Source: Candidatus Aminicenantes bacterium
GTDB lineage: Bacteria; Acidobacteriota; Aminicenantia; Aminicenantales; JAFGBC01
DNA: 64,000 nt
NCBI GenBank assembly: GCA_963702005.1
Contig: OY969696.1
Coordinates: 2,272,001 to 2,336,000, forward strand
Reading direction: 5' to 3'
Below are positions 5,729 to 55,206 of this stretch, piece by piece. Under the pieces are notes generated by a model. It was given only the letters and a program-made list of their open reading frames with translations. It ran no database searches and was not told where the DNA came from. Position 1 is the first letter of the stretch; each line of letters opens with the position of its first letter. A program made the position numbers and the translations under genes.

Positions 5729-5832
5729 CGGAATTCGGGGGACACATCACTTATTTCACGAATTGTTCTAAGTAATAAGATGAGGGTCCGGCGCGGGGCA
5801 GGGGAATTAAGTCGTGTGTCCCCTGAATTCCG
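5729..5832. repeat. Family A inverted-repeat element, degenerate left arm, ~48-nt spacer
   Basis: CGGAATTCGGGGGACACATCACTTATTT (5729-5756) ... AATTAAGTCGTGTGTCCCCTGAATTCCG (5805-5832). Confidence 0.85.
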
Positions 5833-6733
5833 TATCCGAGGAATTGCGAAGGGATTCGATCCTGGCCGCCACGTCCTTGATTGTCTTGTCGAGCCGGTCG
5901 ATCTTGGAGTAGAGGCCGACCAGTTCCAGGTTGTCGGGCCGTTCCTCGTTGACGATCGCTCCCAAAGTCTCGTACAGGGGGTCCATGAGCCGCTCCGTCT
6001 CCCGGATGCGGTCTTGGATGCGGTCCTTGTCCTTTCCCCATTCCCGGATCTCGGCCTCGAGCGACCGGATCTGGACCCGGCCCTTTTCGCGGATGTCCGC
6101 GATGCGGTTGTCCATCTCCTCGAGGGCTTTTTGGACGCCGTCCATCTCCCCGGTCAAAGCGTCCCTGTCCTTCCGCGGCCCCGCCAGCCGGGCCTCCAGG
6201 ACATCCGCCGCCTCCGTACCGGTCCCGCCCTTCTCGGCGGCCTTGATGTCCTTCTCAACGGCTTTGCCCTTCTCCTTGAGTTCGCGCCAGCGGATCTCGT
6301 GGGGCTTCTTCTTTCCTTCTTCCTCCGCGGCTTCGCGCTCGTTGAGATCCTTGAATTCCTCGAGCTTCTTGTGGAGGGTTTCCAAGCGGGCGAATACATC
6401 CTGCCATTCATTTTGCAGGGAGCGCCGTTTGTCCTCGAGGACGCGGAGCTCCTTCACGATGGACTCGGATTGGGCCGGCTGCAGGTCCAGGCTCCAGGCT
6501 TTCTTCCCGATATCCTTGATGAAGCCGAGCCTTCTCTGTTTTTCCCGCTTGAGCCTGACCTGGAGTTGAAGCCGAATGAGCCTGCGTTTTCCCCCGCTCA
6601 AGAGGTAGTTGAGACGCCGGCGCAGGTCCTTATCGCGGAGAAAAATGAAGGTGACGAGCAGGATGATGACGAAGATGAGGAGCCAGAAGGTCCAGTAAGG
6701 AAGACCCTCCCGGGGAAGCGCGTCCTGAAGCAC
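5807..6733 (-). CDS. Hypothetical membrane-anchored coiled-coil protein
   Basis: One N-terminal TM helix then long E/K/R-rich heptads; last codons and stop lie inside a family A arm. Confidence 0.7.
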   Translation of the reverse strand: MLQDALPREGLPYWTFWLLIFVIILLVTFIFLRDKDLRRRLNYLLSGGKRRLIRLQLQVRLKREKQRRLGFIKDIGKKAWSLDLQPAQSESIVKELRVLEDKRRSLQNEWQDVFARLETLHKKLEEFKDLNEREAAEEEGKKKPHEIRWRELKEKGKAVEKDIKAAEKGGTGTEAADVLEARLAGPRKDRDALTGEMDGVQKALEEMDNRIADIREKGRVQIRSLEAEIREWGKDKDRIQDRIRETERLMDPLYETLGAIVNEERPDNLELVGLYSKIDRLDKTIKDVAARIESLRNSSDTEFRGHTT

Positions 6734-6772
6734 CCGAATACTATTCTCCCTTGTCGCTTTTTTGTCAATCCG

Positions 6773-8044
6773 TTATTTAGGGCCGTCGAGCTTGCCTTTC
6801 TTGGGCTGGGGGGGACGGTTGGGCTTCTCCCCGTTTCCGGACGCTTGGTACTTCTGACAGGCGTCATCGATGAGAAAGAGCATGGCCGGCAGGTTCTCGG
6901 CGAAGACGGTCTGGATGTCGTTTTCGGCATTCATGAAGCCGCCGTGGACGAAGTCCAGGGGAGGGAGCTCGATCGTGAAGGCGGGGATGCCCAGAGTTCC
7001 GGAGGCAAAATCGACGGTGTCTCCGTTGGTGAGGTAGAGCAGGGAGGCGGCTTCCGGCGTGTAGTCTCTTCCGTTGACGGGGCGGATGAGCTCGGCCATG
7101 CGCCCGGCCAGGGCGGCGTATTCGGCGGCTTTCGGCGCCGGCAGGGTGGTCCATCCCCAGGCGTAGAGGATGAGCTGGGAATAGCTGTGGTAGCTGACGA
7201 CGACCCGGAAATCCCGGGCTTCGCACAGGCCGCGAATGATCCTCGTCTCGGGCTCGGAGAAAGGCTCCCGGCCGCGGAAGACATCCGAGGACGGATCCGG
7301 ACTCGAGCCCTCGTTGTCGACGCCCCACATATAGCCGTAGTTCCGGTTGAGGTCGACGCCGAAACTCCCGTCGACGTTGAAGCGCCGGTTCTTGCGCCAC
7401 CAGCGGTAAGTTTGGATCGAGTACTCCAGGCCGTCGGGGTTGACGAGCGGAATGATCCAGATTTCGGCCGAATCCACCAGCTTGCGGGCGGTTTCGTTCG
7501 TCCTGTACTCTCCGGTCAGGAAATGGGCGAGAAGAAGCGGAACTTCGACCGAAATCCATTCCCGGGCGTGGTGACAGCCCAGGAACAGGACCTCGGGCTC
7601 GTCCTCGTCGCGGTCGGGATGGTCGCTGATCTTAAGGGCGTAGATGGTCCGGCCTTCGAGCGTCGTCCCGAGCCGAGACAGCCTGGCTATCGCCGGATAG
7701 GCGCGTTCGATGCTCAGGAGATCCTGCTCGAGCTCGACGTAAGAGTGATAGGCGCCGTTGAGTCCGCCTTGGGATGCGGCGCCGGGGGGCGGGGGCGGGG
7801 CCAAGCGCGCCGTTTCGAAGGCGAAGGGGACGCCGAGGCTTCGAAGCCGGGGAAGGTCTCCGGGGGCGAGCACGAGGTAAATTTTATGATCCCATTCCAT
7901 GAGGCGGTCGAGGGGCGTCCGGGCCAGCTTGATCCTGTTTTCCTCGGTCGCCCGGACCGAGACGATATCTTGGGACCGGGCGGTTGTCGCAGGGACGGTC
8001 CATCCCAGGATCAAGAATAGGATCGCGGCGGCGGCTCGTTTCAT
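6773..8044 (-). CDS. Secreted M14 zinc carboxypeptidase (carboxypeptidase T-like)
   Basis: Signal peptide; HAREW, NPDG, WRKNR, GVDLNRN, FSEPET, HSYS, FTIEL. Confidence 0.92.
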   Translation of the reverse strand: MKRAAAAILFLILGWTVPATTARSQDIVSVRATEENRIKLARTPLDRLMEWDHKIYLVLAPGDLPRLRSLGVPFAFETARLAPPPPPGAASQGGLNGAYHSYVELEQDLLSIERAYPAIARLSRLGTTLEGRTIYALKISDHPDRDEDEPEVLFLGCHHAREWISVEVPLLLAHFLTGEYRTNETARKLVDSAEIWIIPLVNPDGLEYSIQTYRWWRKNRRFNVDGSFGVDLNRNYGYMWGVDNEGSSPDPSSDVFRGREPFSEPETRIIRGLCEARDFRVVVSYHSYSQLILYAWGWTTLPAPKAAEYAALAGRMAELIRPVNGRDYTPEAASLLYLTNGDTVDFASGTLGIPAFTIELPPLDFVHGGFMNAENDIQTVFAENLPAMLFLIDDACQKYQASGNGEKPNRPPQPKKGKLDGPK

Positions 8045-9286
8045 TTAAAGCCCGTATCCGAGGGCCAGGGCCGCTCGGTTCGTCCGCAGTTTCCGGCCCG
8101 AACCGTTCTCGGTCCCGAATGAAGCCCCGATGTCGAGCGAGAGATGATCCCAGACGAGGCCGGTCCCGACCGTCCATCCGAGGTAGCCGGACCTGGGGTC
8201 CTTCATGGGCTGAGGGTCGTAGACGATCCCGGCGCGGAAGGGGAGCGTCAGGTTCAAGCCCCAAACCCGGATTTCGGACAGATATTCGGCCCCGGCGCCG
8301 AGCTTCCATGCGTTCCGGAAGGCCCGCGTCTTCGTCTCGTCGAAATAGCGAAATTCGTAGGAAGTCCAATTCAGAAACGTCAAATCGGCGGCCAAGCGGA
8401 GCTGGGGGAGCACCGTCCAGCTGACCCCGGCCCCGGCCGCCATCGGTAAGCGGCTTTTGTCCCGAGATGAGGCTCTAATGGAGATGGATGTTGCCCCCGA
8501 AACGGGCGTATAGTTCAAGGTGCTTGCCGAGTCGGATTTCACGACGAACGGCGCCCGGAGGGCGAACCCCAGCCGGAGGCCGGCCAGAGGCTCCCAGGAT
8601 ACGCCGCCGTTTATAAAGAAACCGGACAGATCCTGATGACGATCATCGTGGATTACAAAGCCCGCATAAGCGTAATCTTCTTCGGAGCTCAGCTCCGTCG
8701 TTCCCGACAGCAGCCCGACGCCTAAGCCGATCGAGAGGCCGGGGCGAAGTTCTCCGGCCAAGGCCAGATGAACGGTCCTAAGAATCCCCTTCTGATGCCA
8801 GCGGAAACTGTAGAGGAAGCGGCTCCCTTCGTAGTAATCGAAGGCGACCTTGGGCCGGTCGTAGACTTCGACCAGGGCCGCGTTGAGGGCGACGGCCCAG
8901 CGGCCGAAGCGGAACGCCAACCCGCCCCAGTCGAGGGCGGAGACGTCGATCGTCAGATTCCCTTGAGTCGTAAAAACTCCGGTGTTGATCGGGCCGAACC
9001 GGAAGATCGCCGCCTGGCGCCGGGAACCGTTCAAGCCCAAAGTCAGCTTGGCAAGCCGGGTCAACAGGGCCGGATTGCCGAGGGCGCAGGAGGGGTCGGA
9101 GGCGAAGGCATAGCCGGTTTCGCCCCGTCCCAAGGACGGTGCCGTCAGAAAAGGAAACGTATTCCAGGTCCCGGCCGGCGCCTCGATCTCATACTGTCCC
9201 ATGACGAGCTGGGCCCGGCCCGGAACGGGAAGGGCGGCCAGCCCCAGGGCGACAAGACAAGGGATGAGGCGGGGGAACGTCCTCAT
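8045..9286 (-). CDS. Outer-membrane beta-barrel, FadL/OmpP1-like
   Basis: Signal peptide, N-terminal GNPALL hatch-like motif, amphipathic strands, C-terminal GYGL. Confidence 0.65.
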   Translation of the reverse strand: MRTFPRLIPCLVALGLAALPVPGRAQLVMGQYEIEAPAGTWNTFPFLTAPSLGRGETGYAFASDPSCALGNPALLTRLAKLTLGLNGSRRQAAIFRFGPINTGVFTTQGNLTIDVSALDWGGLAFRFGRWAVALNAALVEVYDRPKVAFDYYEGSRFLYSFRWHQKGILRTVHLALAGELRPGLSIGLGVGLLSGTTELSSEEDYAYAGFVIHDDRHQDLSGFFINGGVSWEPLAGLRLGFALRAPFVVKSDSASTLNYTPVSGATSISIRASSRDKSRLPMAAGAGVSWTVLPQLRLAADLTFLNWTSYEFRYFDETKTRAFRNAWKLGAGAEYLSEIRVWGLNLTLPFRAGIVYDPQPMKDPRSGYLGWTVGTGLVWDHLSLDIGASFGTENGSGRKLRTNRAALALGYGL

Positions 9287-9368
9287 GATCGAAAATTTTA
9301 TCCGCCCGGCTCTTTATTTGCAAATGGAAAATGGCTATACTATTTGAAATTCCAGGGATGGTGTCATC

Positions 9369-10364
9369 ATGAAAGACCAGCCGATCAGGCGCATCAAAAT
9401 CTCCGGTTCAGGGTTTTATGTGCCGGACAAAATCCTGACCAACGCCGATCTCGAGAAGATGGTCGAGACGACGGACGAATGGATCGTGACCAGGACCGGG
9501 ATCCGGGAGCGGCATGTCTTGAGCGCCGAGCAAGCGACCTCCGACCTGGGCATCGAGGCGGCCCGCCGGGCGCTCAAGAGCGCCCATCTCGATATCAAGG
9601 ACATCGACCTCATCCTGGTCGCGACCAATACACCCGACATGGCATTCCCCGCAACAGCTTGCTGGATTCAGAAGGGACTTAAGGGCCCTCACGTCCCCGC
9701 TTTCGACCTCCAGGCGGGCTGCACCGGCTTTCTCTACGGAATGATCGTAGCCGAGAGCCTGATCCTGAGCGGCCACATGAAGAGGATTCTCCTCGTCGGC
9801 GCTGAAGCCCTGACGCGAATAACGAATTGGGAGGACCGATCGACCTGCATCCTGTTCGGGGACGGGGCGGGCGCTTTCATCCTTGAGGAGAGCAAGGACG
9901 AGTCGGGGATGTTGTCCCATTTCTGGGGGGCGGACGGGAACTTGGGCGATCTGCTAAGCATGCCGGGAGGCGGGAGCCGAAACCCGGCCTCCGCCGAGAC
10001 CGTGGCCAATAAGCTCCATTACCTCCAGATGAAGGGGAACGAAGTTTTCAAACATGCCGTCAAGCGGATGGGGGATGCCGCCGACCAGGCCCTTAAGCGG
10101 GCCGGCCTCAAGAAGGAGGATATCGCCTACCTCATCCCCCATCAGGCCAATATCCGCATCATCGACGCGATGGGCGAGCGGGCCGGCGTCCCCAAGGACA
10201 AGGTCTACGCTAACATCGACCGCTACGGCAACATCTCGGTCGCGACGATCCCGGGTTGCGTCCAGGAGCTCAAGGACGAAGGGAAGCTCAAGAAGGGGGA
10301 TATCCTCGTCCTCGACGCCTTCGGAGCCGGGTTCACCTGGGCGGCCGTCGTCTATTGCTGGTAA
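9369..10364 (+). CDS. fabH: 3-oxoacyl-ACP synthase III
   Basis: TRTGIRERH, AGCTGF (Cys), LFGDGAGA, PHQANIRII, YGNIS, AFGAGFTW. Confidence 0.95.
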   Translation: MKDQPIRRIKISGSGFYVPDKILTNADLEKMVETTDEWIVTRTGIRERHVLSAEQATSDLGIEAARRALKSAHLDIKDIDLILVATNTPDMAFPATACWIQKGLKGPHVPAFDLQAGCTGFLYGMIVAESLILSGHMKRILLVGAEALTRITNWEDRSTCILFGDGAGAFILEESKDESGMLSHFWGADGNLGDLLSMPGGGSRNPASAETVANKLHYLQMKGNEVFKHAVKRMGDAADQALKRAGLKKEDIAYLIPHQANIRIIDAMGERAGVPKDKVYANIDRYGNISVATIPGCVQELKDEGKLKKGDILVLDAFGAGFTWAAVVYCW

Positions 10365-10366
10365 TA

Positions 10367-10447
10367 AATAATTCTGGGGACACACGACTTAATTCAGAAA
10401 ATAAATTAGGTATACTCGGAATTAAGTCGTGTGTCCCCAGAATTATT
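10367..10447. repeat. Family A inverted-repeat element, perfect 29-bp arms, 23-nt spacer
   Basis: AATAATTCTGGGGACACACGACTTAATTC (10367-10395) and its exact reverse complement (10419-10447), between convergent genes. Confidence 0.97.
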
Positions 10448-10454
10448 CCCGAAG

Positions 10455-10961
10455 CTACTCTTCGAGGAGGGGCGTTACGACCTTGACCAGGACGTCCTTC
10501 TCCATCAGGCCGACATGCCGGTGGCGGATGATGCCCTTCTTGTCGATGATGATCGTGGCCGGGATGTACTGGCCGGGCCGATAGGCTTGGGCGATCTCCT
10601 GGGTCCCGAAGGCCACGGTGTAGTTCATTTTCATCTCCCGGGCGAAATCCCCGAGGTCGGTCTCGGGAATGTCCTCCATGGTGACGCCGATGATCTCGAG
10701 CCCTCGGCCGCTCAGCTCGTCATAGACATCGACGAAATCGGGGATTTCGGCACGGCAGGGCGGGCACCAGGTCGCCCAGAAATTGAGGACGAGGACCTTG
10801 CCTTCGTAATCGGCCAAGGTGACCGTCCGTCCCTGAAGATCCTTGAGCGAGAAGTCCGGGGCGGCCACGTTGGTCTGGGAGCTTCCGGCCCCGGCGCAAG
10901 CCGCGGCTAAGAACAGCAAAACGGTTACCATACCGATCGTCGTTTTCAAAGCAGTCTCCAC
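10455..10961 (-). CDS. TlpA/ResA-family thiol-disulfide oxidoreductase
   Basis: APDFSL, NFWATWCPPCRAEIP; N-terminal signal/lipoprotein-like segment. Confidence 0.92.
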   Translation of the reverse strand: METALKTTIGMVTVLLFLAAACAGAGSSQTNVAAPDFSLKDLQGRTVTLADYEGKVLVLNFWATWCPPCRAEIPDFVDVYDELSGRGLEIIGVTMEDIPETDLGDFAREMKMNYTVAFGTQEIAQAYRPGQYIPATIIIDKKGIIRHRHVGLMEKDVLVKVVTPLLEE

Positions 10962-11012
10962 GCGGTTAAATTCTTAGTAAAATCATAGTGATTATAGAAT
11001 AAATCAAACTCA

Positions 11013-11258
11013 GGGTCAAACCTGCACTTTATCATTGTGTAGGTTTGACCGAAAAAAAGGTGACAGACATCTATTTACCCAATTTTTCTTTGGTTTAAAT
11101 TCCAGACAACAATTTCTTTATTAGCTGAGCTAATCAGCGTTGATAGCTTCGGATTTAATCTCGGCTTCCCGGCGCCAGGAAATTAGGGAAATAGATGTCT
11201 GTCATTAATTGAATGCCATATTATCGGAATAAGTGACAAAGTGTAGGTTTGACCCCGA
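11013..11258. repeat. Family C inverted-repeat arms enclosing a family B element
   Basis: GGGTCAAACCTGCACTTTATCA 11013-11034; GTGTAGGTTTGACC 11037-11050; AAGTGACAAAGTGTAGGTTTGACCCCGA 11231-11258. Confidence 0.85.
11059..11204. mobile_element. Family B MITE-like element, copy 1
   Basis: GGTGACAGACATCTATTTACCCAATT 11059-11084 and inverted AATTAGGGAAATAGATGTCTGTCA 11181-11204; AT-rich interior. Confidence 0.8.
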
Positions 11259-11262
11259 TTTA

Positions 11263-11928
11263 TTAATTAGGGGCGAGCATGCCGTCGAAGAGATGAATGG
11301 TCCGCTGGGAATGGGCGGCGATCCGGTCGTCGTGGCTGACCATGACGATGGTCCGGCCCTCTTTCCAGAGCCGGCTCAGAAGCGCCATGATCTCCTCGCC
11401 GCTTTTCGAGTCGAGGTTGCCGGTCGGCTCGTCGGCCAGAATCAAAGGCGGGTCGTTGGCCAGGGCCCGGGCCAGGGCGATCCTCTGCTGCTGCCCTCCC
11501 GAGAGCTCGGACGGCCGGTGCTCCCTCCAGTCCAGGAGCCCGACCGCGTTTAGAAGCTCGGCGACCCGCTCCCGCCGTTGTTTTCCTTTCTTCCCGTTGA
11601 ATAGGAGCGGCAGCTCGACGTTCTCCCAGGCCGTCGCATAGGGTAGGAGATTGAAGTTCTGGAAGACGAAGCCGATCGTCTTGTTCCGGATCGAAGCCAG
11701 CTGGTCGAGGCTGAGGCCGGCGACGTTCCGTCCCTCCAGGACATACTCCCCCTCGGTCGGCGTGTCCAGGCAGCCGATGATGTTCATCAATGTTGATTTT
11801 CCGGAGCCCGACGGCCCCATGATCGATACGAATTCTCCTCGGCCGATCTCGAGCGTCAGGTCGTGCAGCGCCTCGAGGGACTGGCTTCCGGTCCGATAGA
11901 CTTTCTTGATACGTCGGAATTCGATCAT
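11263..11928 (-). CDS. ABC transporter ATP-binding protein (MacB/LolD-like)
   Basis: [35 protein letters not shown]. Confidence 0.93.
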
Positions 11929-11941
11929 GGCCGCACCTCTT

Positions 11942-13192
11942 TTATTCATAGCGGAGGGACTCGATCGGGTTGAGCCGTGAGGCCCGGAGGGCCGGGAAGA
12001 TGCCCGACAGGAAGACGGGGACGCCGACGACGACCAGGAAGATGACCAGAATCTGCACAGAGAATACGGGACGCAGCAGATAGCCGCCCAGGTCGAAGCT
12101 GTCGTAGTTGACCGGGATGCGCCTGACGAGATGGATGATGTTGAAGGCCGTCACGAAGCCCCAGAAGGTCCCCTTGGCGAAAATAAACAGCGTCTCCAGG
12201 ACGATCTGGAGGATAATGACCCGGCGCTTGGCGCCCAGGGCCATCTTGATCCCGATCTCCTGGGTCCGCTCCTTGACGACGGCGTACATGAGGTTGGTGA
12301 CGCCCACGGCGCCGATAAGCAGAGTCAGGGCCCCCATGATCCCCAGGAAGATTTCGATCCCCTTGAAGATGGCCAGGGAGTCCTTGGAATTCTCGATCGT
12401 GTTCCAGATGCCCAGCGCGTAGCGGTCGTCGCTCGCGAAGCGGTACTTGCGTCCGAGGAGGGTCCGAACCCTCTCCTCGATGAGCAGGGAGTAGCGCGGC
12501 TCCTTGGGCCGGATATGGATGCGATCCAGGTAGGGCTGACTGTCGATCTGGCCGAAAGAGGAGAAGGGGAGATAAACCTGATCGGCGTCGGGCCCGTTGT
12601 ACATCGAATCTTGGAGCTTCTTTTGCAGGACCCCGATGACGGTGAAGGGGACCCGGTTGACGACGATCGACTGTCCGATCGGATCCTCGGCCCCGAAGAG
12701 GTCCTTGGCGACGCTCCAGCCGATGAAGGCAACCTTTCGGGCGTCGCGGACGTCGTCCGGGTTGATGAAGCGCCCCCCCGGCCGGGGGATCTGGGTCCGC
12801 ATCTGGGCGAATTCGGCCGTCGTCCCATGGACGGTGCGGTTGATCTCCTTGCGCTTCGCCGAGACCGCCCAGTTGTTGTATGATTCGGGCGCGATGATGT
12901 CGATCTCGGGGATACGCGCTTTGAGATAGTCGATGTCGGCCGTATAGACATAGACGCGTCGCCCCTTGGGCAGCCCCTGGTAGGTCCGGGAGGTCTGTCC
13001 GCCGCTGATCATGATCAGGTCCTGGCCCAGCCCGCTGAAGCTGATCCTGAACTGTTCGGTCATGCCCCGTCCGAAGCCGAGGAAGATGATGATGGACATC
13101 GTTCCCCAGAATAGGGCGAAGGTGATTAGGGCGGCCTTCTTACGGCGCTTGCGGTATTCGCTCAAGAAAAAACGGAGGAGCGTCAGATTCAT
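11942..13192 (-). CDS. ABC transporter permease (MacB/FtsX family)
   Basis: VKERTQEIGIKMALGA, PALRASRLNPIESLRYE. Confidence 0.9.
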   Translation of the reverse strand: MNLTLLRFFLSEYRKRRKKAALITFALFWGTMSIIIFLGFGRGMTEQFRISFSGLGQDLIMISGGQTSRTYQGLPKGRRVYVYTADIDYLKARIPEIDIIAPESYNNWAVSAKRKEINRTVHGTTAEFAQMRTQIPRPGGRFINPDDVRDARKVAFIGWSVAKDLFGAEDPIGQSIVVNRVPFTVIGVLQKKLQDSMYNGPDADQVYLPFSSFGQIDSQPYLDRIHIRPKEPRYSLLIEERVRTLLGRKYRFASDDRYALGIWNTIENSKDSLAIFKGIEIFLGIMGALTLLIGAVGVTNLMYAVVKERTQEIGIKMALGAKRRVIILQIVLETLFIFAKGTFWGFVTAFNIIHLVRRIPVNYDSFDLGGYLLRPVFSVQILVIFLVVVGVPVFLSGIFPALRASRLNPIESLRYE

Positions 13193-13193
13193 A

Positions 13194-14429
13194 TCATTTT
13201 CTCAGGGCGGCGATCGGATTGGTCGAGGCGGCCCGCCGGGCCGGGATGAGGCCGGAGATGGTCCCGATTCCGAGCAGGATGAGAATGGTCGAGATGACGA
13301 CCACGGGGCTGAGGCTGGGGGTGCCCACGAATTCGATAAAATCTTTGGCCGGCAGGGATTGGACAAGCCGGATGACGAAGGTCGACAGGGCGAATCCGAT
13401 GAAGCCGCCCAGGAGCATGATGGCCAGGGACTCGCTGAAGAACTGGGCCAGGATGGTCCGGCGGCGGGCCCCCACGGCCAGCTTGATGCCGATCTCGCGC
13501 GTCCGCTCCTCGACGACGACCATCATGATCGAGGCGACGCCCACTCCTCCGACAAGCAGCGTGAAAGACCCCAAAACGCCCAGGAAGATGTTGAAGGCCA
13601 GGAAGAAGACCGTGAACATCTTCTCGTTCTCCAGGGTGTCCCAGACGGCGATGGCATCGGTGTCCTTGGGGTCGAAGCCGATGAGCTTGGAGAAATGCTG
13701 CTTGATGTCCTGGGTCACGGCCGTGCTCCGCCCCAGGTCCAGCGGGCGGTAGATGATGTTCGAGACGTATTTCTGGCCGTAGAGGGCGGAGAATGTCGTC
13801 CAGGGTATGAAGGCGCAGCGCTCGTCGCGCCCTCCATTATAGTTCGAGTTTTGATTCTTCTTAGCCATGACGCCGACGACGGTGAACGGGACGCCTTCGA
13901 TCAGGATCTGGTGCCCCAGCGGATCGTCGTCGAAAAATAGGTCCTTGGCCAGGACGTCTCCGATGAAACAAACCCGCCTTCGCTCCTCCATATCCGGCGT
14001 GTTGATGAAGCGTCCCCGTCCTGCGATCGTGTTGCGCATCCTTTCGAACGAGGGGTTGACGCCGCGGACGGTGCTCAGGAATTCCTGCCGCCCGTAGCGG
14101 ATGCGCTGGCCCTGGACGAACTCGGGGCTGAGGAGCTCGATGCCCGGCACTTTCCGGACAAGGTCCTCCGCCTGTTCCGGTGTCACCCGGACGGGTTTTC
14201 CCTTCTGGAGCCCCTGGTAGGGCAGGGTGGTTCTCGAGGGGAAAAGGAGAACGATCCCGACACCCATGCCGTGGAAGCGCTTGCGTTGGGCCTGGCCCAC
14301 CGACTCGCCGAAGGCGACCATGAGGACGACTGAAAAGGTTCCCCAGACGACGCCGGAGAGCGTCAAGACGGTCCTCAGCGGTTGGCGAACCAGGTCGCGG
14401 GCCAGGTTTCGGAAAAATGTTGCGATCAC
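13194..14429 (-). CDS. ABC transporter permease (MacB/FtsX family)
   Basis: VEERTREIGIKLAVGA, PARRAASTNPIAALRK. Confidence 0.9.
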   Translation of the reverse strand: MIATFFRNLARDLVRQPLRTVLTLSGVVWGTFSVVLMVAFGESVGQAQRKRFHGMGVGIVLLFPSRTTLPYQGLQKGKPVRVTPEQAEDLVRKVPGIELLSPEFVQGQRIRYGRQEFLSTVRGVNPSFERMRNTIAGRGRFINTPDMEERRRVCFIGDVLAKDLFFDDDPLGHQILIEGVPFTVVGVMAKKNQNSNYNGGRDERCAFIPWTTFSALYGQKYVSNIIYRPLDLGRSTAVTQDIKQHFSKLIGFDPKDTDAIAVWDTLENEKMFTVFFLAFNIFLGVLGSFTLLVGGVGVASIMMVVVEERTREIGIKLAVGARRRTILAQFFSESLAIMLLGGFIGFALSTFVIRLVQSLPAKDFIEFVGTPSLSPVVVISTILILLGIGTISGLIPARRAASTNPIAALRK

Positions 14430-15505
14430 TTAATCTCCCGGGGCGGCCGTTCCACGACCGCTTCGCCTTCGGCCAGCCCGCTTTGGATCTCGACGCTAAG
14501 CCCGTCCGAAAGGCCGGTCTGGACTTCCTTCTTTTCGACGGCCTCGCCCTTCCGGATCTCGACGTACTTCTTTCCGTTCTCGAACAAGACGAGGCGCTCG
14601 GGCAGGGTTAGGATGTCCTTTCGCTCCCGGACGGTTATCGTGGCCGTGGCCGAATAGCCGGCCCGGAGTTGCTGTCCGCCCGCGTCGACGACCAGGATCT
14701 CGATGTCGAACAGGGTCGCGTTGCCGTCTTTCTTGGCCTTGGGGAAGATCCGCTCGACGCGGCCCGTGATCTTGCTGTCGGGCAGGGCCCCGATCTGGAT
14801 GTCCGCTTCGGTGCCGATTATGATCTTACCCACGTCGATCTCGTCGACCGTCCCCTTGAAAAGGAGATAACCCATGTCGGCCAGCGAGCACATCTCGGTC
14901 CCGGGCTGATAATTGGTCAGCGGGACGATCGGATCGCCCTCGAAGACGCTCTGGGAGAGGACCATACCCTTGATGGGCGATTTGACGATCGAGTCGATTT
15001 CGCGGTTGGACATCCGGATGCGACCCTTCTCCATGAGTTCGAAGCGCTCCATGGCGATCTTGTGCCTCAGGTTCGCTTCGTTGAAGGCCGAGTCGATGGC
15101 GTCCATCTCGGCCTGGGAGACCAGGGCGCCCCGGAAGAGCTGAAGTGTCCGTTCCCGGTCGGTCTGGAGCTTGTCGAGCGTGACCTGGGCGACCTCGATA
15201 TTTCGCCGGGCATCGACGTATTCGACCGGCGTCGGGTTGGGCGAGATCTTGAAGAGGGGGCTGCCGGGCTTGACCGGGTCGCCGACCTTGAACATGACCG
15301 CGGCCACAATACCGGGGATAGTCGATTTGACCTTGATCTCCTTATCCGGCTCGATCGTGCCCACGGCCAGGGCTTTTTCGCTGATCGTGCCCCGGACGAC
15401 TTTAACCTCGTTCAGGGTCGCCTTAGCCTTACGGCCTGACAAGAGGAGATAGATAAAGACGCCGACGAAAGCGACGGCCAGGATTCTCCACAGCCATTTT
15501 TTCAT
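14426..15505 (-). CDS. Efflux periplasmic adaptor subunit (MacA/HlyD family)
   Basis: N-terminal TM, lipoyl halves, helical hairpin, VQTGLSDGLSVEIQSGLAEGE. Confidence 0.9.
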   Translation of the reverse strand: MKKWLWRILAVAFVGVFIYLLLSGRKAKATLNEVKVVRGTISEKALAVGTIEPDKEIKVKSTIPGIVAAVMFKVGDPVKPGSPLFKISPNPTPVEYVDARRNIEVAQVTLDKLQTDRERTLQLFRGALVSQAEMDAIDSAFNEANLRHKIAMERFELMEKGRIRMSNREIDSIVKSPIKGMVLSQSVFEGDPIVPLTNYQPGTEMCSLADMGYLLFKGTVDEIDVGKIIIGTEADIQIGALPDSKITGRVERIFPKAKKDGNATLFDIEILVVDAGGQQLRAGYSATATITVRERKDILTLPERLVLFENGKKYVEIRKGEAVEKKEVQTGLSDGLSVEIQSGLAEGEAVVERPPREIK

Positions 15506-15558
15506 GCTACACCTCTATTAGGGCTCTTGTGTATAGACGTAAGCCGGCCGCAAAAGGT

Positions 15559-15586
15559 TCGGGGTCAAACCTACACTTTGTCACTT
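15559..15586. repeat. Family C arm
   Basis: TCGGGGTCAAACCTACACTTTGTCACTT is the exact reverse complement of 11231-11258. Confidence 0.9.
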
Positions 15587-15657
15587 TTTCCAATTATCAG
15601 GCGGCCGCGCGGCTTGACAGATCTCTTCGTCCTGATTTACCATCTGCCGCGAGAGAA

Positions 15658-15726
15658 AATAATTCTGGGGACACACGACTTAATTCACAGGCGCGCGGAA
15701 TTAAGTCGTGTGTCCCCAGAATTATT
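15658..15726. repeat. Family A inverted-repeat element, perfect 29-bp arms, 11-nt spacer
   Basis: Arms 15658-15686 and 15698-15726 identical to the 10367 copy; spacer ACAGGCGCGCG. Confidence 0.97.
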
Positions 15727-15754
15727 GCGCAGGACATGGACGGGGAGTGAAAGC

Positions 15755-16666
15755 ATGACAGCCGCCGGTCTCGCCCGCTGTTTCGTCGTTTCATTATCCG
15801 TTCTCTCGCTTTTCCCCGCCGGAGGAGCCGTGACCGATTTTGGACAATCCATACCCAAGACGTTAGGGGCCTGGGAGGCCCGCGAGGCGGACCGGGTCTA
15901 CGACCGGAAGACCATCTTCGACTACATGGACGGCGGCGCCGAGGTCTTTCTCGCTTTCGATTTCCGCGAAGTCTGGACCCGCCGCTACGCCGGGCTTGAC
16001 GGCCGCGACCTGACCCTGGACATCTACGATATGGGCTCCCCGGCCGAAGCCTTCGGGATTTTCTCGTGCGACCGGGAGGACCCGGACGCCGGGATCGGAC
16101 AGGAGTCTGAATACGGCTTCGGCCTTCTCCGTTATTGGCAGGGCCGCTTCTTTGTGACCGTGACCGCCTCCGGCGAGGATGAAGAGTCACGTAAAGCCGT
16201 CCTGGATGTCGGCAGGGCCGCGGTCGGCCGGCTCGGCCCGCCCGGCCCCAAGCCCGATTTGGTCGATACTCTGCCGGCCGCATCGCTTCTCGCGGACCGG
16301 ACGAGCTTTTTCCACTCGAACGTCAACCTCAATAACCGCTATTTCGTGGCCAGCGATAACATCCTCAACCTCGACCGCTCCACGGACTGCGTCTTCGCCG
16401 AGTACGAGGCGGCCGCTGGAGAGGCGGGCCGCATCCTCGTCGTCCGCTATCCCGACTCCGCCAAGGCCGAAGCCGCGCGCCGGTCATTCCTAGCCGCCTA
16501 TCTCCCCGAGGCCGGCCCCGACGGCCTCGCCCGGACGGAGAACAAGAAATGGGTGCTCGCCCTCCGGAAGGAGTCTGTCCTCATCGTCGTCTTCGAAGCC
16601 CCGGACCCGGATTGGGCCCGGGCGCTGGCGTCATCCGTCTCCTCCGCCAAATCTCCCTCGAGGTGA
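15755..16666 (+). CDS. Exported hypothetical protein (DUF6599-like)
   Basis: Signal peptide after ATG 15755; IFDYMDGGAEVFLAFDF, DIYDMGSPAEAFGIFS; the longer ORF-track start runs through the repeat. Confidence 0.65.
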   Translation: MTAAGLARCFVVSLSVLSLFPAGGAVTDFGQSIPKTLGAWEAREADRVYDRKTIFDYMDGGAEVFLAFDFREVWTRRYAGLDGRDLTLDIYDMGSPAEAFGIFSCDREDPDAGIGQESEYGFGLLRYWQGRFFVTVTASGEDEESRKAVLDVGRAAVGRLGPPGPKPDLVDTLPAASLLADRTSFFHSNVNLNNRYFVASDNILNLDRSTDCVFAEYEAAAGEAGRILVVRYPDSAKAEAARRSFLAAYLPEAGPDGLARTENKKWVLALRKESVLIVVFEAPDPDWARALASSVSSAKSPSR

Positions 16667-16673
16667 AAACGCC

Positions 16674-17551
16674 ATGACCCCCATCATTACCCGACGCGAT
16701 TTCCTCAAGGGGACGACGGCCGTCGTCCTCGGAGCCCATCTGGCGCGGGCTCAAGAGCCGGCCGCCGCCAAAAAAACGAGGGTCGTCTTAATCCGGCATG
16801 CCGACGTCCTGGACGAAAACTCAGCCATCAACCCGGATATCCTCCAGGGCATGCTCGACCAGGCCGTCATGAGGCTCCTCGATGAAAGCGATCCCGTTAA
16901 AGCCTTCGGCAGGCTCGTCAAATCCGGCGAGACGGTGGGCATCAAGACCAACGTCTGGTCTTACCTCCCGACCCCCAAGGAGCTCGAGGCGGCCGTCAAA
17001 AGGCGCCTGATGGACGCTGGCATCGCCGAGGACAAGATCGGGCTCGATGATCATACGGTACGAACCAACCCGCTGTTCGTAAACGCGACCTCCCTGATCA
17101 ACGTCAGGCCGCTCCGGACCCATTACCTGGCCGGTATGTCGGGAACCATCAAGAACTACATCATGTTCGCGGAATCCCAGGAGGCTCTCCACCCGACAGC
17201 TGCGCCGACTTGGGGTCGTTATTCAAGCTCCCGATCGTCCAGGGCAAGACGCGGCTCAACATCCTGTGCGTCCTGACGCCGCAGTTCCACGGCCGCGGGC
17301 CCCATCACTTCAGCCGGCGCTACGTCTGGGCTTACAAGGGCCTGATCGTCGGGCAGGATCCCGTCGCCGTCGACACGATCGGGCTCCGCCTGATCATGGC
17401 CAAGCGCCGCGAGGTCCTGGGCAAGGCCCAGGAGCTGCCGCCGGTGCCCAAGCACATCCAGCTCGCCGACACCCGCCACGGCATCGGAACAAGCGATATC
17501 GACGCCATCGAGCTCATCAAGCTCGGCTGGGACGAGAACATCCTGGTTTGA
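16674..17551 (+). pseudogene. Tat-exported DUF362-like protein with a single-base frameshift near 17192-17194
   Basis: TRRDFLK Tat motif, VGIKTN, DPVAVD; adding one C gives continuous HPDSCADLGSLF; may be a sequencing error. Confidence 0.7.
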
Positions 17552-17580
17552 ACGGCCTCCGGAGGCCTGGAGGACGGACC

Positions 17581-19416
17581 ATGAACTCAGCAAGGACGAT
17601 CGTGATTCTTTTCCTGATCGCGGCCGGGATTTGCCTGCCGCTACGGACCGGAGCCAAGGACGGGAATCCGCGGCTCCTCGGCTCCATCCTGTGGTCCAAG
17701 GCCTACGATGTCGTTGTCGACGGCCGATACGCTTATGGATCCTTCCTCAACGGCCTGGTCGTCCTGGACCTTTTCGACCGACGCTCTCCCGTGGCGGTTT
17801 CACAGCTCTATTTGGGGGGCGGCTACGACATCGAGAAAAAGGGCGGCCTCGTCTATATCGCCGCCGGGCGCGAGGGATTGAAGATCGTAGACGTCTCCAA
17901 TCCCGCCGGGCCGGTTGTCAAGGGCGGAGCGGCCACGTCCGCTCCGGCCAAGGCGGTCGCGGTCGGCGAACGGCACGCCTTCGTCGCGGCCGGAGCGGCA
18001 GGGCTCCAGGTCTTCGACATCGGAAATCCCGGCTCGCCCAAGGCCGTGGCTTCGCTCGACACTCAGGGCGCATCGGAAGGGGTGACCCTGTCGGGAACCA
18101 CGCTGTTTCTATCAGACGGCGACGCCGGGCTCCGGATCATTGATGTCCGGGATCCGGCCGCGCCGAAGATAATCGGCTCTTTCGATACGCCGGGGACGGC
18201 CCGGCAGACGGCCGTCTCGGGCCGGCATGCGTTCGTGGCCGACGGGGCGGCGGGCTTGACCGTCGTCGATATCTCCCGTCCCGAAGTTCCCAAACAGGCC
18301 GGTTCGCTGATGACGTCGAGCTACGCCAACAGCATCGCCCTGGCGGAGGGCGGGATCGCCTGCGTTGGAACCCTCTACGACGGCGGCTTTCAGGTCCTGG
18401 ACATCGGCAAACCGGAGGCGCCCGTCTCGCTGGCCATCGTCAAGTATACGATGTACAACGAAGCCTGGGGGGTGACCGTCTTGGGGACGACGGCCTTCGT
18501 CGTCGACTATTTCTCCGGGATCAATCTAGTGGATATCTCCGATCCGCGCAAGCCGCTTGTAGTCGGGCGCTTTGCGACCCCCAGTTCCATCATCGCCGCC
18601 GCCGTCGAGGACCACACCCTCTACGCGATCGGGGAGCTTTCCGGCCTTCAGGTTTACGACATCGCAGATCCCGCGGCGCCCCGTTTCGTCGGTGCCTCGG
18701 CTATCTCGCGCGGGATCCAGGGGCTGACGGTTCAAGGTTCATTCGCCTATGAGACGGAGAGGCGCGTCCTCAACATCCTGGACGTGTCCGATCCCAAGGC
18801 CATCAAGATCGTGAAGTCCCTTCCGCTTCCGGGCGTTCCCCGGGCCGTGGTGGTCCGGGACCGCTACGCTTTTGTGACGTCCGATCATTCGGGATTTCAC
18901 ATCGTGGACGTCTCGGACCCCCGGTCGCCCAAGGTCGTCGGATCGCTCGAGATGCCCGGGTTCGCCTACGGCCTGACGGTCGTCGGAGACAGAGCCTATC
19001 TCTGCAGCAGCGACACGGGATTCCACGTGCTTGATATCGCCGATCCGATGAAGCCGGCGCTCTTGGGATCGTTCCGTACGCCCGGCGAGCCCTATGCCGC
19101 GGCGGTCAAGGACGGAGTCGCGTTTGTCGCCGACGGCCCCGAGGGACTCCTCGCGCTGGACGTTTCCGATCCGAAGGCCATCAAGTCGATCGGGAGCGCT
19201 TCCTTCGAGGGATTCGCCAACGGCATCGCCGTCGCGGGGACGACCGCCTACGTTTCGGACGAAAGCTTCGGCCTCCGGGCGTTCGATATCGGCAACCCGG
19301 CGGCGCCCAAGCTCGTCGGCGGCACCAAGACGCCGGGCGAGCCCGCGACCGTCCGCATCGCCGACGGCCTCATCATCCTCCCTGACTCCTTCTCTTTATT
19401 TCTTTTTAAATGGTGA
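17581..19416 (+). CDS. LVIVD-repeat secreted beta-propeller protein
   Basis: Many AFVADGxxGL(x)VVDISxP repeats; signal peptide; RBS GGAGG; stop TGA lies in a family B arm. Confidence 0.88.
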   Translation: MNSARTIVILFLIAAGICLPLRTGAKDGNPRLLGSILWSKAYDVVVDGRYAYGSFLNGLVVLDLFDRRSPVAVSQLYLGGGYDIEKKGGLVYIAAGREGLKIVDVSNPAGPVVKGGAATSAPAKAVAVGERHAFVAAGAAGLQVFDIGNPGSPKAVASLDTQGASEGVTLSGTTLFLSDGDAGLRIIDVRDPAAPKIIGSFDTPGTARQTAVSGRHAFVADGAAGLTVVDISRPEVPKQAGSLMTSSYANSIALAEGGIACVGTLYDGGFQVLDIGKPEAPVSLAIVKYTMYNEAWGVTVLGTTAFVVDYFSGINLVDISDPRKPLVVGRFATPSSIIAAAVEDHTLYAIGELSGLQVYDIADPAAPRFVGASAISRGIQGLTVQGSFAYETERRVLNILDVSDPKAIKIVKSLPLPGVPRAVVVRDRYAFVTSDHSGFHIVDVSDPRSPKVVGSLEMPGFAYGLTVVGDRAYLCSSDTGFHVLDIADPMKPALLGSFRTPGEPYAAAVKDGVAFVADGPEGLLALDVSDPKAIKSIGSASFEGFANGIAVAGTTAYVSDESFGLRAFDIGNPAAPKLVGGTKTPGEPATVRIADGLIILPDSFSLFLFKW

Positions 19417-19582
19417 CAGACATCTATTTACCCAATTGTTTTTTTAATAATTCAGCGGCTAATGACTTATTTCTAAAAATATTTCGAGTGTTCCCGGTAT
19501 TGAAAGTAGCTTTGAAGTTCTTTTCGGACCTAATCTCTACTCCCAGGTGCTGAGAAATTCGGTAAATAGATGTCTGTCACCA
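19411..19582. mobile_element. Family B MITE-like element, copy 2
   Basis: TGGTGACAGACATCTATTTACCCAATT 19411-19437 and AATTCGGTAAATAGATGTCTGTCACCA 19556-19582 (1 mismatch). Confidence 0.85.
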
Positions 19583-19599
19583 AATAATTATGACCAAAT

Positions 19600-19627
19600 A
19601 ATTAAGTCGTGTGTCCCCGGAATTATT
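19600..19627. repeat. Family A solo arm
   Basis: AATTAAGTCGTGTGTCCCCGGAATTATT immediately beyond the porB stop. Confidence 0.92.
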
Positions 19628-21681: not shown

Positions 21682-21977
21682 TTCTCCTCCTCGACCATGG
21701 CGATGCACTTGGACGGGCATTCCTCGGCGCAGATGCCGCAGCCCTTGCAGTAGTCGTAGTCGATGACCGGGAAGTCGTCCTCGATGTAGATGGAAGTGTC
21801 CGGGCAGTACTTCCAGCAGATGCCGCACTGGATGCAGGCGGCCTTGTCGATGACGGGCCTGATGTTCCGCCAGGCCCCGGTCAGGTTATAAAGCATGGAG
21901 CCGAGGGACATCGGGGTCAGCGGGACCTCTTTCTCGGAAGCGAAAACGATCTTCTTGGTCGGCTTGAATTTCTTCAT
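21678..21977 (-). CDS. porD: Oxidoreductase delta subunit (2x4Fe-4S)
   Basis: TGAWR, CIQCGICWKYCP, YCKGCGICAEECP. Confidence 0.9.
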   Translation of the reverse strand: MKKFKPTKKIVFASEKEVPLTPMSLGSMLYNLTGAWRNIRPVIDKAACIQCGICWKYCPDTSIYIEDDFPVIDYDYCKGCGICAEECPSKCIAMVEEEK

Positions 21978-22007
21978 GGCGGTCCTTTCGCTCCTCCGGC
22001 GGCGGCC

Positions 22008-22556: not shown

Positions 22557-22574
22557 TTCAAACTCCTTTCTAAA

Positions 22575-22643
22575 TAATTCGGGGGACACACGACTTAATT
22601 CCCTCGGCGGCTGTGATAATTAAGTCGTGTGTCCCCCGAATTA
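22575..22643. repeat. Family A inverted-repeat element, perfect 26-bp arms, 17-nt spacer
   Basis: TAATTCGGGGGACACACGACTTAATT 22575-22600 / AATTAAGTCGTGTGTCCCCCGAATTA 22618-22643. Confidence 0.96.
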
Positions 22644-22662
22644 CCTCGACCATGAGTTTTAA

Positions 22663-22691
22663 AGTTTATGGTTTGGAGCGGGGAGTGTCAA
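22663..22691 (-). promoter_or_regulatory. Sigma70-like promoter of the por operon
   Basis: Minus strand TTGACA(22691-22686)-N17-TAAACT(22668-22663). Confidence 0.7.
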
Positions 22692-22692
22692 G

Positions 22693-51133: not shown

Positions 51134-51159
51134 CATAGTGACTCTCGAAGGAGGATTTT

Positions 51160-53832: not shown

Positions 53833-53853
53833 AGGACGAGGACGAGACCGGCC

Positions 53854-54405
53854 ATGATCCGTATCATCAGCGGGACGTATAAAGGCAAGCGGCTCAAGCG
53901 CGTCCCCAGCCCCCTCGTCCGTCCCATGCCGGACAAGCTCAAGGAGTCCCTGTTTAGCATTCTCAAAGAAACGGTCAGGGGAAGGGCTTTCTTGGACGCC
54001 TTCGCCGGGACCGGATCGGTCGGGATCGAGGCTTTGAGCCGGGGGGCGGACAAGGCCGTTTTCATCGAGGAGTATCCCCGGGCCGTCCGCATCATCAAGG
54101 AGAACTTGGCCAAAGTCGGGGCCGAGGATCGGGCCCTGGTCGTGGCGCGGGAGTACAACCGGGCCGTCATCGAGCTGGCCAAGGACGGATTCCTGTTCGA
54201 CCTCGTCTTTCTCGACCCGCCCTACAAGCTTCTCGATGAGCGGGATCCGCTCAAGGTCCTCCGCAAGCGGGGTATCGTCCGGCCGGGCGGAACCGTCATC
54301 CTCAGGCACCATTTCAAGACGAAGCCGCCCCTCGGGGATTTTCCGCTGGTGCGGGCGGTCACCCTCGGCGACGACACCTTGTCGTTTTTCCTGCCCGGCA
54401 AATAA
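53854..54405 (+). CDS. rsmD: 16S rRNA m2G966 methyltransferase RsmD
   Basis: IRIISGTYKG, LDAFAGTGSVGIEALSRGA, FLDPPY; stop lies inside the family A arm. Confidence 0.93.
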   Translation: MIRIISGTYKGKRLKRVPSPLVRPMPDKLKESLFSILKETVRGRAFLDAFAGTGSVGIEALSRGADKAVFIEEYPRAVRIIKENLAKVGAEDRALVVAREYNRAVIELAKDGFLFDLVFLDPPYKLLDERDPLKVLRKRGIVRPGGTVILRHHFKTKPPLGDFPLVRAVTLGDDTLSFFLPGK

Positions 54406-55206
54406 TTCTGGGGACACACGACTTAATTGCCCTTAGGACCCGGCTTTTTCTTAGCGATTATTCGCTCCGTAAGGGCTTCCAACTTACGGATAAAAGCATC
54501 ATCTCCCAAAGGTCTACCCGTTCGAAAATGTTTCCTCAATTCATCATTCTCAGATGGCACTTCTTTTCTAAGAAATGAAGCCCAATCAGAGATCCGTTGT
54601 GTTAGATGAAAATCCGCTAAGATGGGATCTTCTCTTCCGAATATGTGTGAACGGGCGCTTGACCAAGCGTAGTCTTCTGCATACCTAACGATTCCCGCCC
54701 TGACGGGGTTTCTTTCCACATATCGGACAGCTGCATAGAGGTACGGTTCATCGAGTGGACATGAATAGAACCGTCCTTGCCATAAATATCCGTTCCATCC
54801 CTCTCTCTTGTTGATCCTATTTGAATATTCCTGATGGGTTTGACCGATTCCCTGGGCAAGGCTTTTAGGGTTGGAAGGGACGATAATCAAATGTACATGG
54901 TTGTTCATTAGACAAAAAGCCCAGATTTTGATTCCGTTCAATGCGCTCTGTTTTTTCAAGATCTCTAAGTACGCCCCTTTATCATGCTCCGAAAAAAAGG
55001 TTGTTTGCCTACGGTTGCCTCGCTGGACGACATGATGGGGGATGTTTGGGATGACAATGCGGGCCAGCCTAGCCATCGGCGTTCAGAAAAAATCAACTTT
55101 GGTTTTAAATTCTCTCATGATAAAGACGCTTAGAAAAACCAGAAATCATCATGGGATTGCAGCTTCGAGATTCCAAATAATTAAGTCGTGTGTCCCCAGA
55201 ATTATT
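54401..55206. mobile_element. 806-bp element: HUH tyrosine transposase bounded by perfect 28-bp family A terminal inverted repeats
   Basis: AATAATTCTGGGGACACACGACTTAATT 54401-54428 / AATTAAGTCGTGTGTCCCCAGAATTATT 55179-55206; interior AT-richer than host; no target duplication seen. Confidence 0.9.
54423..55076 (-). CDS. Y1 (HUH) tyrosine transposase, RAYT/TnpA-REP-like
   Basis: HHVVQRGN, CLMNNHVHL (HUH), LWQGRF, RYVERNPVRAG (catalytic Tyr region), YAWSS. Confidence 0.93.
   Translation of the reverse strand: MARLARIVIPNIPHHVVQRGNRRQTTFFSEHDKGAYLEILKKQSALNGIKIWAFCLMNNHVHLIIVPSNPKSLAQGIGQTHQEYSNRINKREGWNGYLWQGRFYSCPLDEPYLYAAVRYVERNPVRAGIVRYAEDYAWSSARSHIFGREDPILADFHLTQRISDWASFLRKEVPSENDELRKHFRTGRPLGDDAFIRKLEALTERIIAKKKPGPKGN

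Follow-up and report, generated by a model that had tools for sequence, protein, structure and literature searches.

How can the arms of a repeat family remain almost uniform throughout a genome while the DNA between them differs from one copy to the next? The question is raised by a 64,000-nucleotide (nt) stretch of a Candidatus Aminicenantes genome (hereafter the window; C1:2272001-2336000 of a one-contig genome of 4,309,361 bp with 60.4% GC). Short arms that we call family A occur here as gene-less inverted pairs, as a solo arm and as the ends of a unit carrying the gene for a Y1/HUH tyrosine transposase-like protein, TIRYT. Comparison with congeners shows that the family-A elements are old residents at intergenic addresses common to these genomes, not recent insertions, and that the arms, solos included, carry each genome's own variant, the same as around the local TIRYT gene. 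The best explanation as a whole, which we think probable though only just, is that the addresses are fixed, the arms are renewed in place, and the loops between them are passive and prone to insertions and deletions (indels).

The full arm reads AATTC-N-GGGGACACACGACTTAATT-C. Across genomes its 19-nt core, GGGGACACACGACTTAATT, varies at positions 10-11 (CG here, TC in the congener G001, AT in genome G212), the rest being constant. Searching with this core at up to 3 mismatches, and taking the chance level from 100 shuffles, we found 11 arms in the window where 0.01 are expected. An earlier note on this DNA had described the same 11, and the four pairs, the solo and the arms of the gene unit all read as it had them. 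It had put the spacers of the four pairs at about 48, 23, 11 and 17 nt; between the 19-nt cores they measure 48, 25, 13 and 17 nt, which upholds the first and last and corrects the other two, and a decayed pair at about 19447-19501 has to be added. The features, in window positions, are as follows.

54401..54428, plus strand: left terminal inverted repeat (TIR) of the gene unit, AATAATTCTGGGGACACACGACTTAATT, 28 nt, 100% complementary to the right TIR and 750 nt apart from it; its inner AATTAA supplies the stop codon of the minus-strand TIRYT gene.
54423..55076, minus strand: TIRYT gene, encoding a 217-aa Y1/HUH tyrosine transposase-like protein (Pfam Y1_Tnp, PF01797, E 1e-14).
55179..55206, minus strand: right TIR of the gene unit, 102 nt upstream of the TIRYT ATG.
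5729..5832, unstranded: gene-less pair whose arms enclose a 48-nt loop; on the left is an arm of the older TC type, a 3-mismatch variant (GGGGACACATCACTTATTT) with its inner end mutated (ATTT), on the right one of the current CG type, and N is unmatched (G versus the complement of T).
10367..10447, unstranded: gene-less pair between two convergent open reading frame (ORF) ends, with perfect 29-nt arms and a 25-nt loop between cores, folding at -32.4 kcal/mol (z -14).
15658..15726, unstranded: gene-less pair, its loop 13 nt long and its 29-nt arms perfect; at the orthologous G001 site stands a TC-type pair with a 12-nt loop.
19447..19501, unstranded: decayed family-A pair, nested in the loop of another hairpin family's pair and orthologous to a half-decayed pair in G001.
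19597..19627, minus strand: solo arm, AATAATTCCGGGGACACACGACTTAATT on the minus strand, which forms no hairpin by itself.
22575..22643, unstranded: gene-less pair with 26-nt arms, N = G in both and a 17-nt loop, just upstream of a minus-strand gene start.

Extended to the whole genome, as the earlier note had proposed, the arm search and spacer table give 94 arms (84 exact over 19 nt, 5 with one mismatch, 4 with two and 1 with three). These resolve into 37 inverted pairs, with loops of 3-170 nt, and 20 single arms, one tandem being among the arrangements. As in the gene unit, the inner (TTAATT) ends face each other in every one of the 37 close pairs, and no pair in the opposite order occurs within 400 nt. 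A single arm has no secondary structure (0 kcal/mol); pairs fold as 26-29-bp hairpins at -29 to -32 kcal/mol (z -10 to -14). The logo of the 94 arms has sharp limits: AATTC is kept in 93-94 of them, and the outer bases directly next to the arm are about random. The N after AATTC is T in 64 arms, G in 14, C in 12 and A in 4; the C after the core is present in 78, and the next three bases, AAT, are about 55% conserved, with random bases beyond. Family A is also tight. A 25-nt probe at up to 7 mismatches matched the genome 132 times, compared with 3 for the reversed control, and 93 matches lay within 3 mismatches. The looser matches belong to sister families, which have AATTC-N-GGGGACAC in common with family A, differ in the middle and end in AATT again. 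Examples of such sister arms are ...GGGGACACGATACCGAATT and ...GGGGACACGCACCAGAATT; at genome positions 672332-672539, for instance, a family-A pair has sister-family hairpins inside its 170-nt loop, and the nesting is kept in G001.

That all arms lie at gene boundaries, as first claimed for the window, is roughly right for the genome. Crude ORF calls cover 82% of it, yet 42 of the 57 units fall outside them, and several of the other 15 merely overlap over-extended ORF starts. The intergenic settings are tandem in 19 cases, convergent in 13 and divergent in 10, and units often lie within 0-10 nt of ORF ends. Several ORFs genome-wide stop within 0-2 nt of an arm.

The age of these addresses is evident from two congeners, G001 and G002, whose assemblies are both fragmented (G002 is 83% complete) and for which the flanks of all 47 units were mapped to this genome. 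Thirty of the 33 G001 units could be placed, 25 of them at sites that have an arm here (22 distinct sites) and five not. In 22 of the 25 shared-site comparisons the G001 arm has TC where ours has CG, and the G001 gene unit, at the syntenic place, likewise has an intact TC arm. Overall, the local master sequence is matched exactly by 84 of the 94 arms in this genome and by 41 of the 48 in G001. Four sites that are solo in both species (u7, u11, u13 and u25) also carry each species' variant. The idea that conversion needs an intact partner arm was therefore dropped, since solo arms are converted as well. Copies fixed at the same sites in distant relatives lacking the transposase had been named in the earlier note as evidence that would refute its reading; the sites are indeed shared, for 25 of 30 mappable G001 units, but with a congener that itself carries the gene.

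Arms that escaped this uniformity are few. Two pairs here mix CG and TC arms (window 5729 and genome 3762649), and each time it is the TC arm whose inner AATT is mutated; the damaged TC arm of 3762649 is also found in G001 and thus predates the species split. G001 in turn has an exception in a decayed CG-type pair at the ortholog of 3563623. The arms of G002 are heterogeneous, with 5 of 17 exact and decay at one shared site, and no TIRYT was found in G002, where the syntenic region is missing from the 83%-complete assembly.

Within a pair, the two arms change together. N is identical in both arms of 35 of the 37 pairs, compared with 21.5 expected (permutation p < 1e-5), and the three internal variants present in both partners of a pair, at 1195233, 1688768 and 3498764, are all mirrored. 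At the 11 sites with a pair in both species, N is mirrored in all 22 pairs, and it differs between the species at 8 of the 11, approximately as independent draws from two pools would. End-anchored tandem duplications, whose periods are 15, 17, 19 and 45 nt, also occur in 4 of 94 arms but in none of 94 control windows. In the duplicated arms (genome 52979, 2070803, 3706190 and 3834612) the outer part of the arm is repeated together with 2-26 nt of flank, and two of the three short ones have GGGGACA at the end of the duplicated unit.

The loops behave quite differently. Their lengths between cores, 3-170 nt in the 37 pairs, include twelve of 3-6 nt and fifteen of 25-35 nt. BLAST among the 25 loops of at least 13 nt found nothing beyond 7-8-nt words, and BLAST of loops against the gene-unit interior found nothing convincing; the 170-nt loop alone matches DNA elsewhere, owing to the sister-family hairpins inside it. 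Untrimmed loops show a weak similarity to one another (mean z 0.64), but most of it was lost once 3 nt had been removed from either end of each loop, its source being shared C...G ends. After trimming, 5.9% of comparisons exceed z 2, as under the null, and 4 of 153 exceed z 3 where about 1 is expected. The original observation that the spacers resemble neither each other nor the gene interior thus holds by BLAST and by the trimmed test, with one loop pair against it: the loops at genome positions 576628 and 750915, two different loci, are 24/35 identical (z 5.8, global alignment), and a second loop pair is marginal. The arms at these two loci are identical despite the 24/35 loop identity. Such a loop pair at two loci implies that units can be copied whole and that divergence is much faster in loops than in arms.

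Loops also vary between species. Flank and arm join at the same bases in the two genomes while the loops differ, measuring 35 versus 4, 25 versus 6 and 6 versus 48 nt; further shared sites give 29 versus 148 and 48 versus 14 nt, and 4 versus 127 nt against G002. By eye, several short loops resemble the ends of long orthologous ones, an impression weakened by objective comparison. A local-alignment test against non-orthologous loops supported homology of orthologous loops at 1 of 11 sites (u1, scoring 10 against a background maximum of 6) and marginally at one more, while a cheap-gap global alignment, in which orthologous loops scored no higher than non-orthologous ones, was uninformative. Among near-identical strains, compared over window positions 4500-24400 through contigs of four metagenome runs (X1-X4), loops, which make up 103 nt of the 19.9 kb, contain 4 of the 12 listed indels. 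The elements are present in these contigs, the pair at 5729-5832 is bridged, and the other arms are mostly points where contigs end; of 124 joints, none of the 15 listed cuts out an element, contigs being unable to reveal circles. The best reading is that loops are unconstrained and indel-prone, with their local capture left standing as the alternative. The earlier note had called them variable or locally captured: variable they are, and local capture is the less likely reading, drift and indels in old loops being favoured by the recurrent 24/35 loop, the identical flanks and the strain-level indels.

In its fullest form this alternative holds that loops are made or captured anew, single arms being mobile and a second inverted arm being added nearby, or a resident being overwritten at the same address; the loop would then be any DNA that happens to lie, or is filled in, between the arms. 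We consider it unlikely, although it is the likeliest of the rivals. Twenty arms are solos, which are both conserved and converted in that state; hardly any two loops are alike, and at shared sites most loops (10 of 11) have no demonstrable between-species homology. Loop GC is 50%, like that of non-ORF DNA (52%) and unlike that of the gene unit (44%). Unit u27 is a solo arm in G001 and an empty site here, the ortholog of 4041168 is occupied in G001 by a pair of another family between similar outer boundaries, and hairpins of one family sit inside the loops of another. What this scheme handles poorly is the precision of the sites, as both flanks abut the arms identically in two species, where an independent second arm arriving at a variable distance would shift a flank. 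Nor does it predict that a 35-nt loop is common to two different loci, that 15 of 37 loops cluster at 25-35 nt, that N matches in 35 of 37 pairs when about half would be expected from independent arrivals, or that loops change by small indels among near-identical strains.

As to kind, family A is the repeat family of a TIRtron, and its protein is a TIRYT, probably of the TnpA-Y1 subclass 2.1 type; the TIRtron assignment follows from the non-palindromic inverted ends with GGGGWSAS around a single-copy Y1/HUH gene. Both terms were introduced for RAYT-like genes lying between long inverted repeats that are not repetitive extragenic palindromes (REPs), by Di Nocera, De Gregorio and Rocco (2013, PMC3733652), whose TIRtron passages describe GGGGWSAS as shared by the repeats, being a trait of the main TIR type and not of all TIRs, and the repeats as "moderately abundant families" found as singles, dimers and clusters. 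Quentin et al. (2018, PMC6006769) equate TIRYTs with subclass 2.1, for which they give the motifs NHVH, W[EQ] and YIELNP or Y[IV]HLNP, a median length of 238 aa and, in the flanking repeats, GGGG[AT][CG]A[CG]. In the literature searched the term TIRYT is rare, appearing in these two works only.

The present unit shares with the TIRtrons of PMC3733652, as described there, the RAYT-like gene between long TIRs other than REP palindromes, a TIR with GGGGWSAS (GGGGACAC, which is in every arm and fits this consensus), one TIR overlapping the 3' end of the gene, and TIR copies dispersed as singles, dimers and groups, here 37 pairs, 20 solos and one tandem. It differs in abundance, 94 arms and 37 dimers being high beside "moderately abundant", and the TIRtron passages of that paper deal with neither dimer loops, orthologous sites nor between-species arm variants. 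Family A is thus a real, well-preserved and unusually copy-rich set of TIRtron repeats of a kind already described. The earlier picture of a REPIN/MITE-like (miniature inverted-repeat transposable element), non-autonomous population tied to one transposase unit, with conserved arms and variable loops, was accurate; it left the kind unnamed, however, and the elements are of the known TIRtron/TIRYT kind, hence no new sort of MITE.

The protein carries the motifs NHVH, WQGRF and RYVERNP, and the HUH and Tyr motifs (NHVH, RYVE-NP) are invariant in 7 of 7 aligned homologues. With subclass 2.1, as characterised in PMC6006769, it has in common NHVH, WQ and Y-x-E-x-NP, a length of 217 aa against the median of 238, a C-terminal tail and low copy number; its YVERNP keeps the Y, E, N and P of the subclass motif and departs at two positions. 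That account also gives the subclass a conserved C-terminal domain with helix-turn-helix-like similarity. Here the aligned homologues have a conserved tail of about 80 aa (WSSA..H, GRP.G), and a Pfam search of the C-terminal 87 aa returned no match, helix-turn-helix or other, at E up to 10. A PDB sequence search with the protein gave 0 matches at E up to 0.01. The large repeat family sets this TIRYT apart, since REP-like sequences near the genes were not found for subclass 2.1 in the relevant part of PMC6006769, and the Group 1 RAYTs of Bertels et al., which correspond to subclass 2.1, have few flanking repeats, about 12, in that report (10.1101/119735). The gene is single copy, its two paralogues being 32% and 29% identical with other repeats beside them, and its GC is 45.7% versus 60.4% for the genome (44% for the gene unit). 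The family is large: 7915 of 8000 scored protein clusters resemble TIRYT at E 1e-10, under the bare source name "transposase", so that it numbers at least 7915. The syntenic G001 protein is 61-62% identical to ours, the neighbouring DNA about 80-85%; either fast TIRYT evolution or replacement of the gene unit would account for this low identity.

Three better-known classes were set aside. Canonical REP/RAYT systems resemble the present one in their single-copy tyrosine transposase and many inverted hairpin doublets in intergenic DNA, and also, by the account of a preprint on REPINs (10.1101/2024.10.14.618302), in vertical inheritance at conserved positions, repeats that shift to match the predominant transposase gene and mirrored arm changes. 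The arm here, however, is no palindrome, has no GT[AG]G foot (GTAG/GTGG is found on neither strand) and is unstructured when single, and loops are unconserved within family A. The nearest NCBIfam profile, REP_Tyr_transpos, scores 61.1 bits, below its 80-bit cut-off. With IS200/IS605 the protein has the Y1/HUH catalytic core PF01797 in common, and presumably an action on single-stranded DNA. Yet the gene is single copy (paralogues at 32% and 29%), its ends are inverted repeats rather than two subterminal hairpins, and IS200 profile NF033573 scores 23.8 bits against a cut-off of 55. A classical DDE-type MITE is excluded by the lack of a consistent target duplication in three filled/empty comparisons, and no loop matches the parent interior.

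Beyond the genome, the core occurs within 2 mismatches in 9 of 41 relatives (G000 included), and in many copies only within the genus (48 in G001, 17 in G002); among 301 sampled genomes of the phylum it is present in 6 (G000 included). The exact 19-mer was found in 72 metagenome contig stretches, representing 71 loci, 65 of them without flank similarity to this genome. At nine of the metagenome loci the arm has a TIRYT gene next to it, and the full-length ones are 51-59% identical to ours; the arm is thus far better conserved than the protein. Tandem partial copies of the arm's outer end are frequent at metagenome loci too. At several loci the arm is followed by what reads as a promoter-like TTGACG-17-TATAAC, often with the TIRYT start after it, and among loci L070-L140 many have a conserved promoter-like stretch after the 19-mer and tandem outer-end copies before it. 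The scan gave no presence/absence polymorphisms for this genome, consisting mostly of contigs with non-matching flanks, not of close strains.

How might arms be renewed at fixed addresses? We envisage the gene-less pairs as miniature gene units, their two arms facing by the TTAATT ends and folding as single strands. Renewal would proceed in place, arm by arm, and its agent would most likely be TIRYT, cutting and rejoining single-stranded DNA at the arm, with ordinary ectopic gene conversion as the alternative. Partner arms may be made identical through arm-to-arm templating within the hairpin. The loop would be passive, drifting and taking large insertions and deletions, down to 3-6 nt, which is our proposed reason why loops look unrelated; whole units would be copied to new sites or lost just rarely. 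Action of Y1/HUH proteins on single-stranded DNA is established for IS608 and E. coli TnpA-REP, according to PMC6006769, and the REPIN preprint (10.1101/2024.10.14.618302) reports in its account of conserved positions that REPINs there shift to match the predominant RAYT. Arm renewal thus has a precedent in a sister family. A bolder version, which we regard as speculative and doubtful, casts TIRYT not as an ordinary transposase but as an enzyme that rewrites short cassettes in place: it would swap 26-nt arms, with the self-complementary AATT at either limit, at fixed addresses and keep some 90 arms, solos included, identical to its own ends, with the partner following by hairpin templating, and the hypervariable loops, the fast-changing yet mirrored N beside the outer AATTC and the end-anchored tandem duplications would be scars of repeated cutting. 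If true, this would amount to enzyme-driven concerted evolution of bacterial non-coding DNA.

Several observations weigh against renewal in place. The three filled/empty comparisons show no consistent target or clear duplication, and AATT is present at the empty site in two of three. At 406300 a single GAATT in G001 corresponds to AATT-[element]-AATT here; at u27, TTAATTATT here corresponds to a solo arm plus 17 nt in G001, flanked by a 10-nt imperfect repeat; and at 576628 the G001 site is empty and its junction lacks AATT, an arm being present in G002. An intact TC/TC pair at 1195233 is unconverted here, as is an intact CG arm in G001. With loop homology at just 1 of 11 sites, one loop with many indels is inseparable from replacement of the whole element. 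The decay of arms in G002 allows no conclusion about gene loss, the TIRtron region lying outside that assembly, and the whole comparison rests on two congeners, both fragmented. Cutting, circles and movement of family A are proposals drawn from sequences alone, and TIRYT activity is, by the TIRtron passages of PMC3733652, unmeasured for any member. Finally, unbiased gene conversion would also match the gene's own arms to the population, and the variant match is thus no proof of an enzyme.

This last point is central to a second rival, in which TIRYT is domesticated for another task and the arms are kept uniform by RecA-type ectopic gene conversion together with arm-to-arm correction in the hairpin. 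It would suit the Group 1 RAYTs described in Bertels et al. 2017 (10.1101/119735) as single-copy, mostly not REP-associated and with about 12 occurrences of their flanking 16-mers. Very few new sites have been gained since the species split, and unbiased conversion, homogenising the gene's own arms too, leads one to expect the variant match. We nevertheless judge this improbable. A length of 26-29 nt is at the lower limit for homologous conversion, and the limits of the arm are sharp, AATTC being about 100% conserved and the next outward bases about random. The same 19-mer stands beside TIRYT genes just 51-59% identical and within non-matching flanks, which argues that the protein reads it. 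The unconverted arm in both mixed pairs has a damaged inner AATT, and the end-anchored tandem duplications (4/94 arms versus 0/94 controls) are a sign of trouble or nicking at the arm. Very improbable, lastly, is that the hairpins regulate host genes (as terminators, stabilisers of mRNA or parts of promoters) under site-wise purifying selection with the gene unit incidental: although they are intergenic and often 0-10 nt from ORF ends, the outer AAATAATTC...GAATTATTT provides an A/T-rich tail at either side and, at two sites, AATAAT in the arm is scored as a -10-like hexamer, site-by-site selection cannot switch the same two bases at about 20 shared sites in one species, a terminator scan picked up none of the pairs, the elements occupy tandem, convergent and divergent intergenic space alike (19, 13 and 10), and Rfam at gathering thresholds gave 0 matches over the whole window.

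Renewal in place is of interest beyond this genome. TIRtrons are common, with at least 7915 protein clusters resembling TIRYT, yet little studied since their naming in 2013, and the role of the enzyme is obscure in the literature. The comparative picture here is clear: old addresses, arms identical to the ends of the local gene, and free loops. A pattern suggested for REPINs, in the preprint's account of them (10.1101/2024.10.14.618302), is now found in a different branch with non-palindromic arms, and by this analogy the two branches may share an activity of single-copy tyrosine nucleases. The added value lies in the comparative evidence for arm renewal at fixed sites and for hypervariable loops; the element itself is an ordinary example of its kind.

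Some neighbouring features complete the description. The window also contains at least two further hairpin families, whose arms read TGACAAAGTGTAGGTTTGACCCC and TGACAGACATCTATTTACC (11007-11261, 11061-11204 and 19406-19587); the family with arm TGACAAAGTGTAGGTTTGACCCC also lies beside the 32%-identical Y1 paralogue elsewhere (listed genome places 714058-714693 and 3854827-3855249), and the loops of these further families likewise differ between species (site 52926). The G001 locus orthologous to 4041168-4041245 (L182) holds an other-family pair, …GTGACGCTAATCAGTGTCCCC / GGGGACACTGATTAGCGTCAC…, with GGGG ends inward and between similar outer AATAAyTC ... GAATT boundaries; a second G001 TIRYT gene (53% identical, contig C204) has ends of this type. 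At genome 3687130-3688030 only a right arm is present, about 900 nt of other DNA replacing the left arm and loop, and G001 has a complete pair there. Two sets of inverted solos, at 1171855/1174081 (2.2 kb) and 2127866/2132817 (4.9 kb), were considered as composite elements and rejected, as they enclose ordinary genes. In the first (1171855-1174099) two inverted solos tightly bracket a putative ABC-transporter gene pair (469-aa permease-like and 236-aa ATPase-like ORFs), and the left solo (1171855) is present in G001 too. Upstream of the gene unit in the window, a 183-aa ORF at 53854-54405 has a DPPY motif and is putatively methyltransferase-like; its TAA stop falls inside the outer AATAATTC of the arm at 54401-54428.

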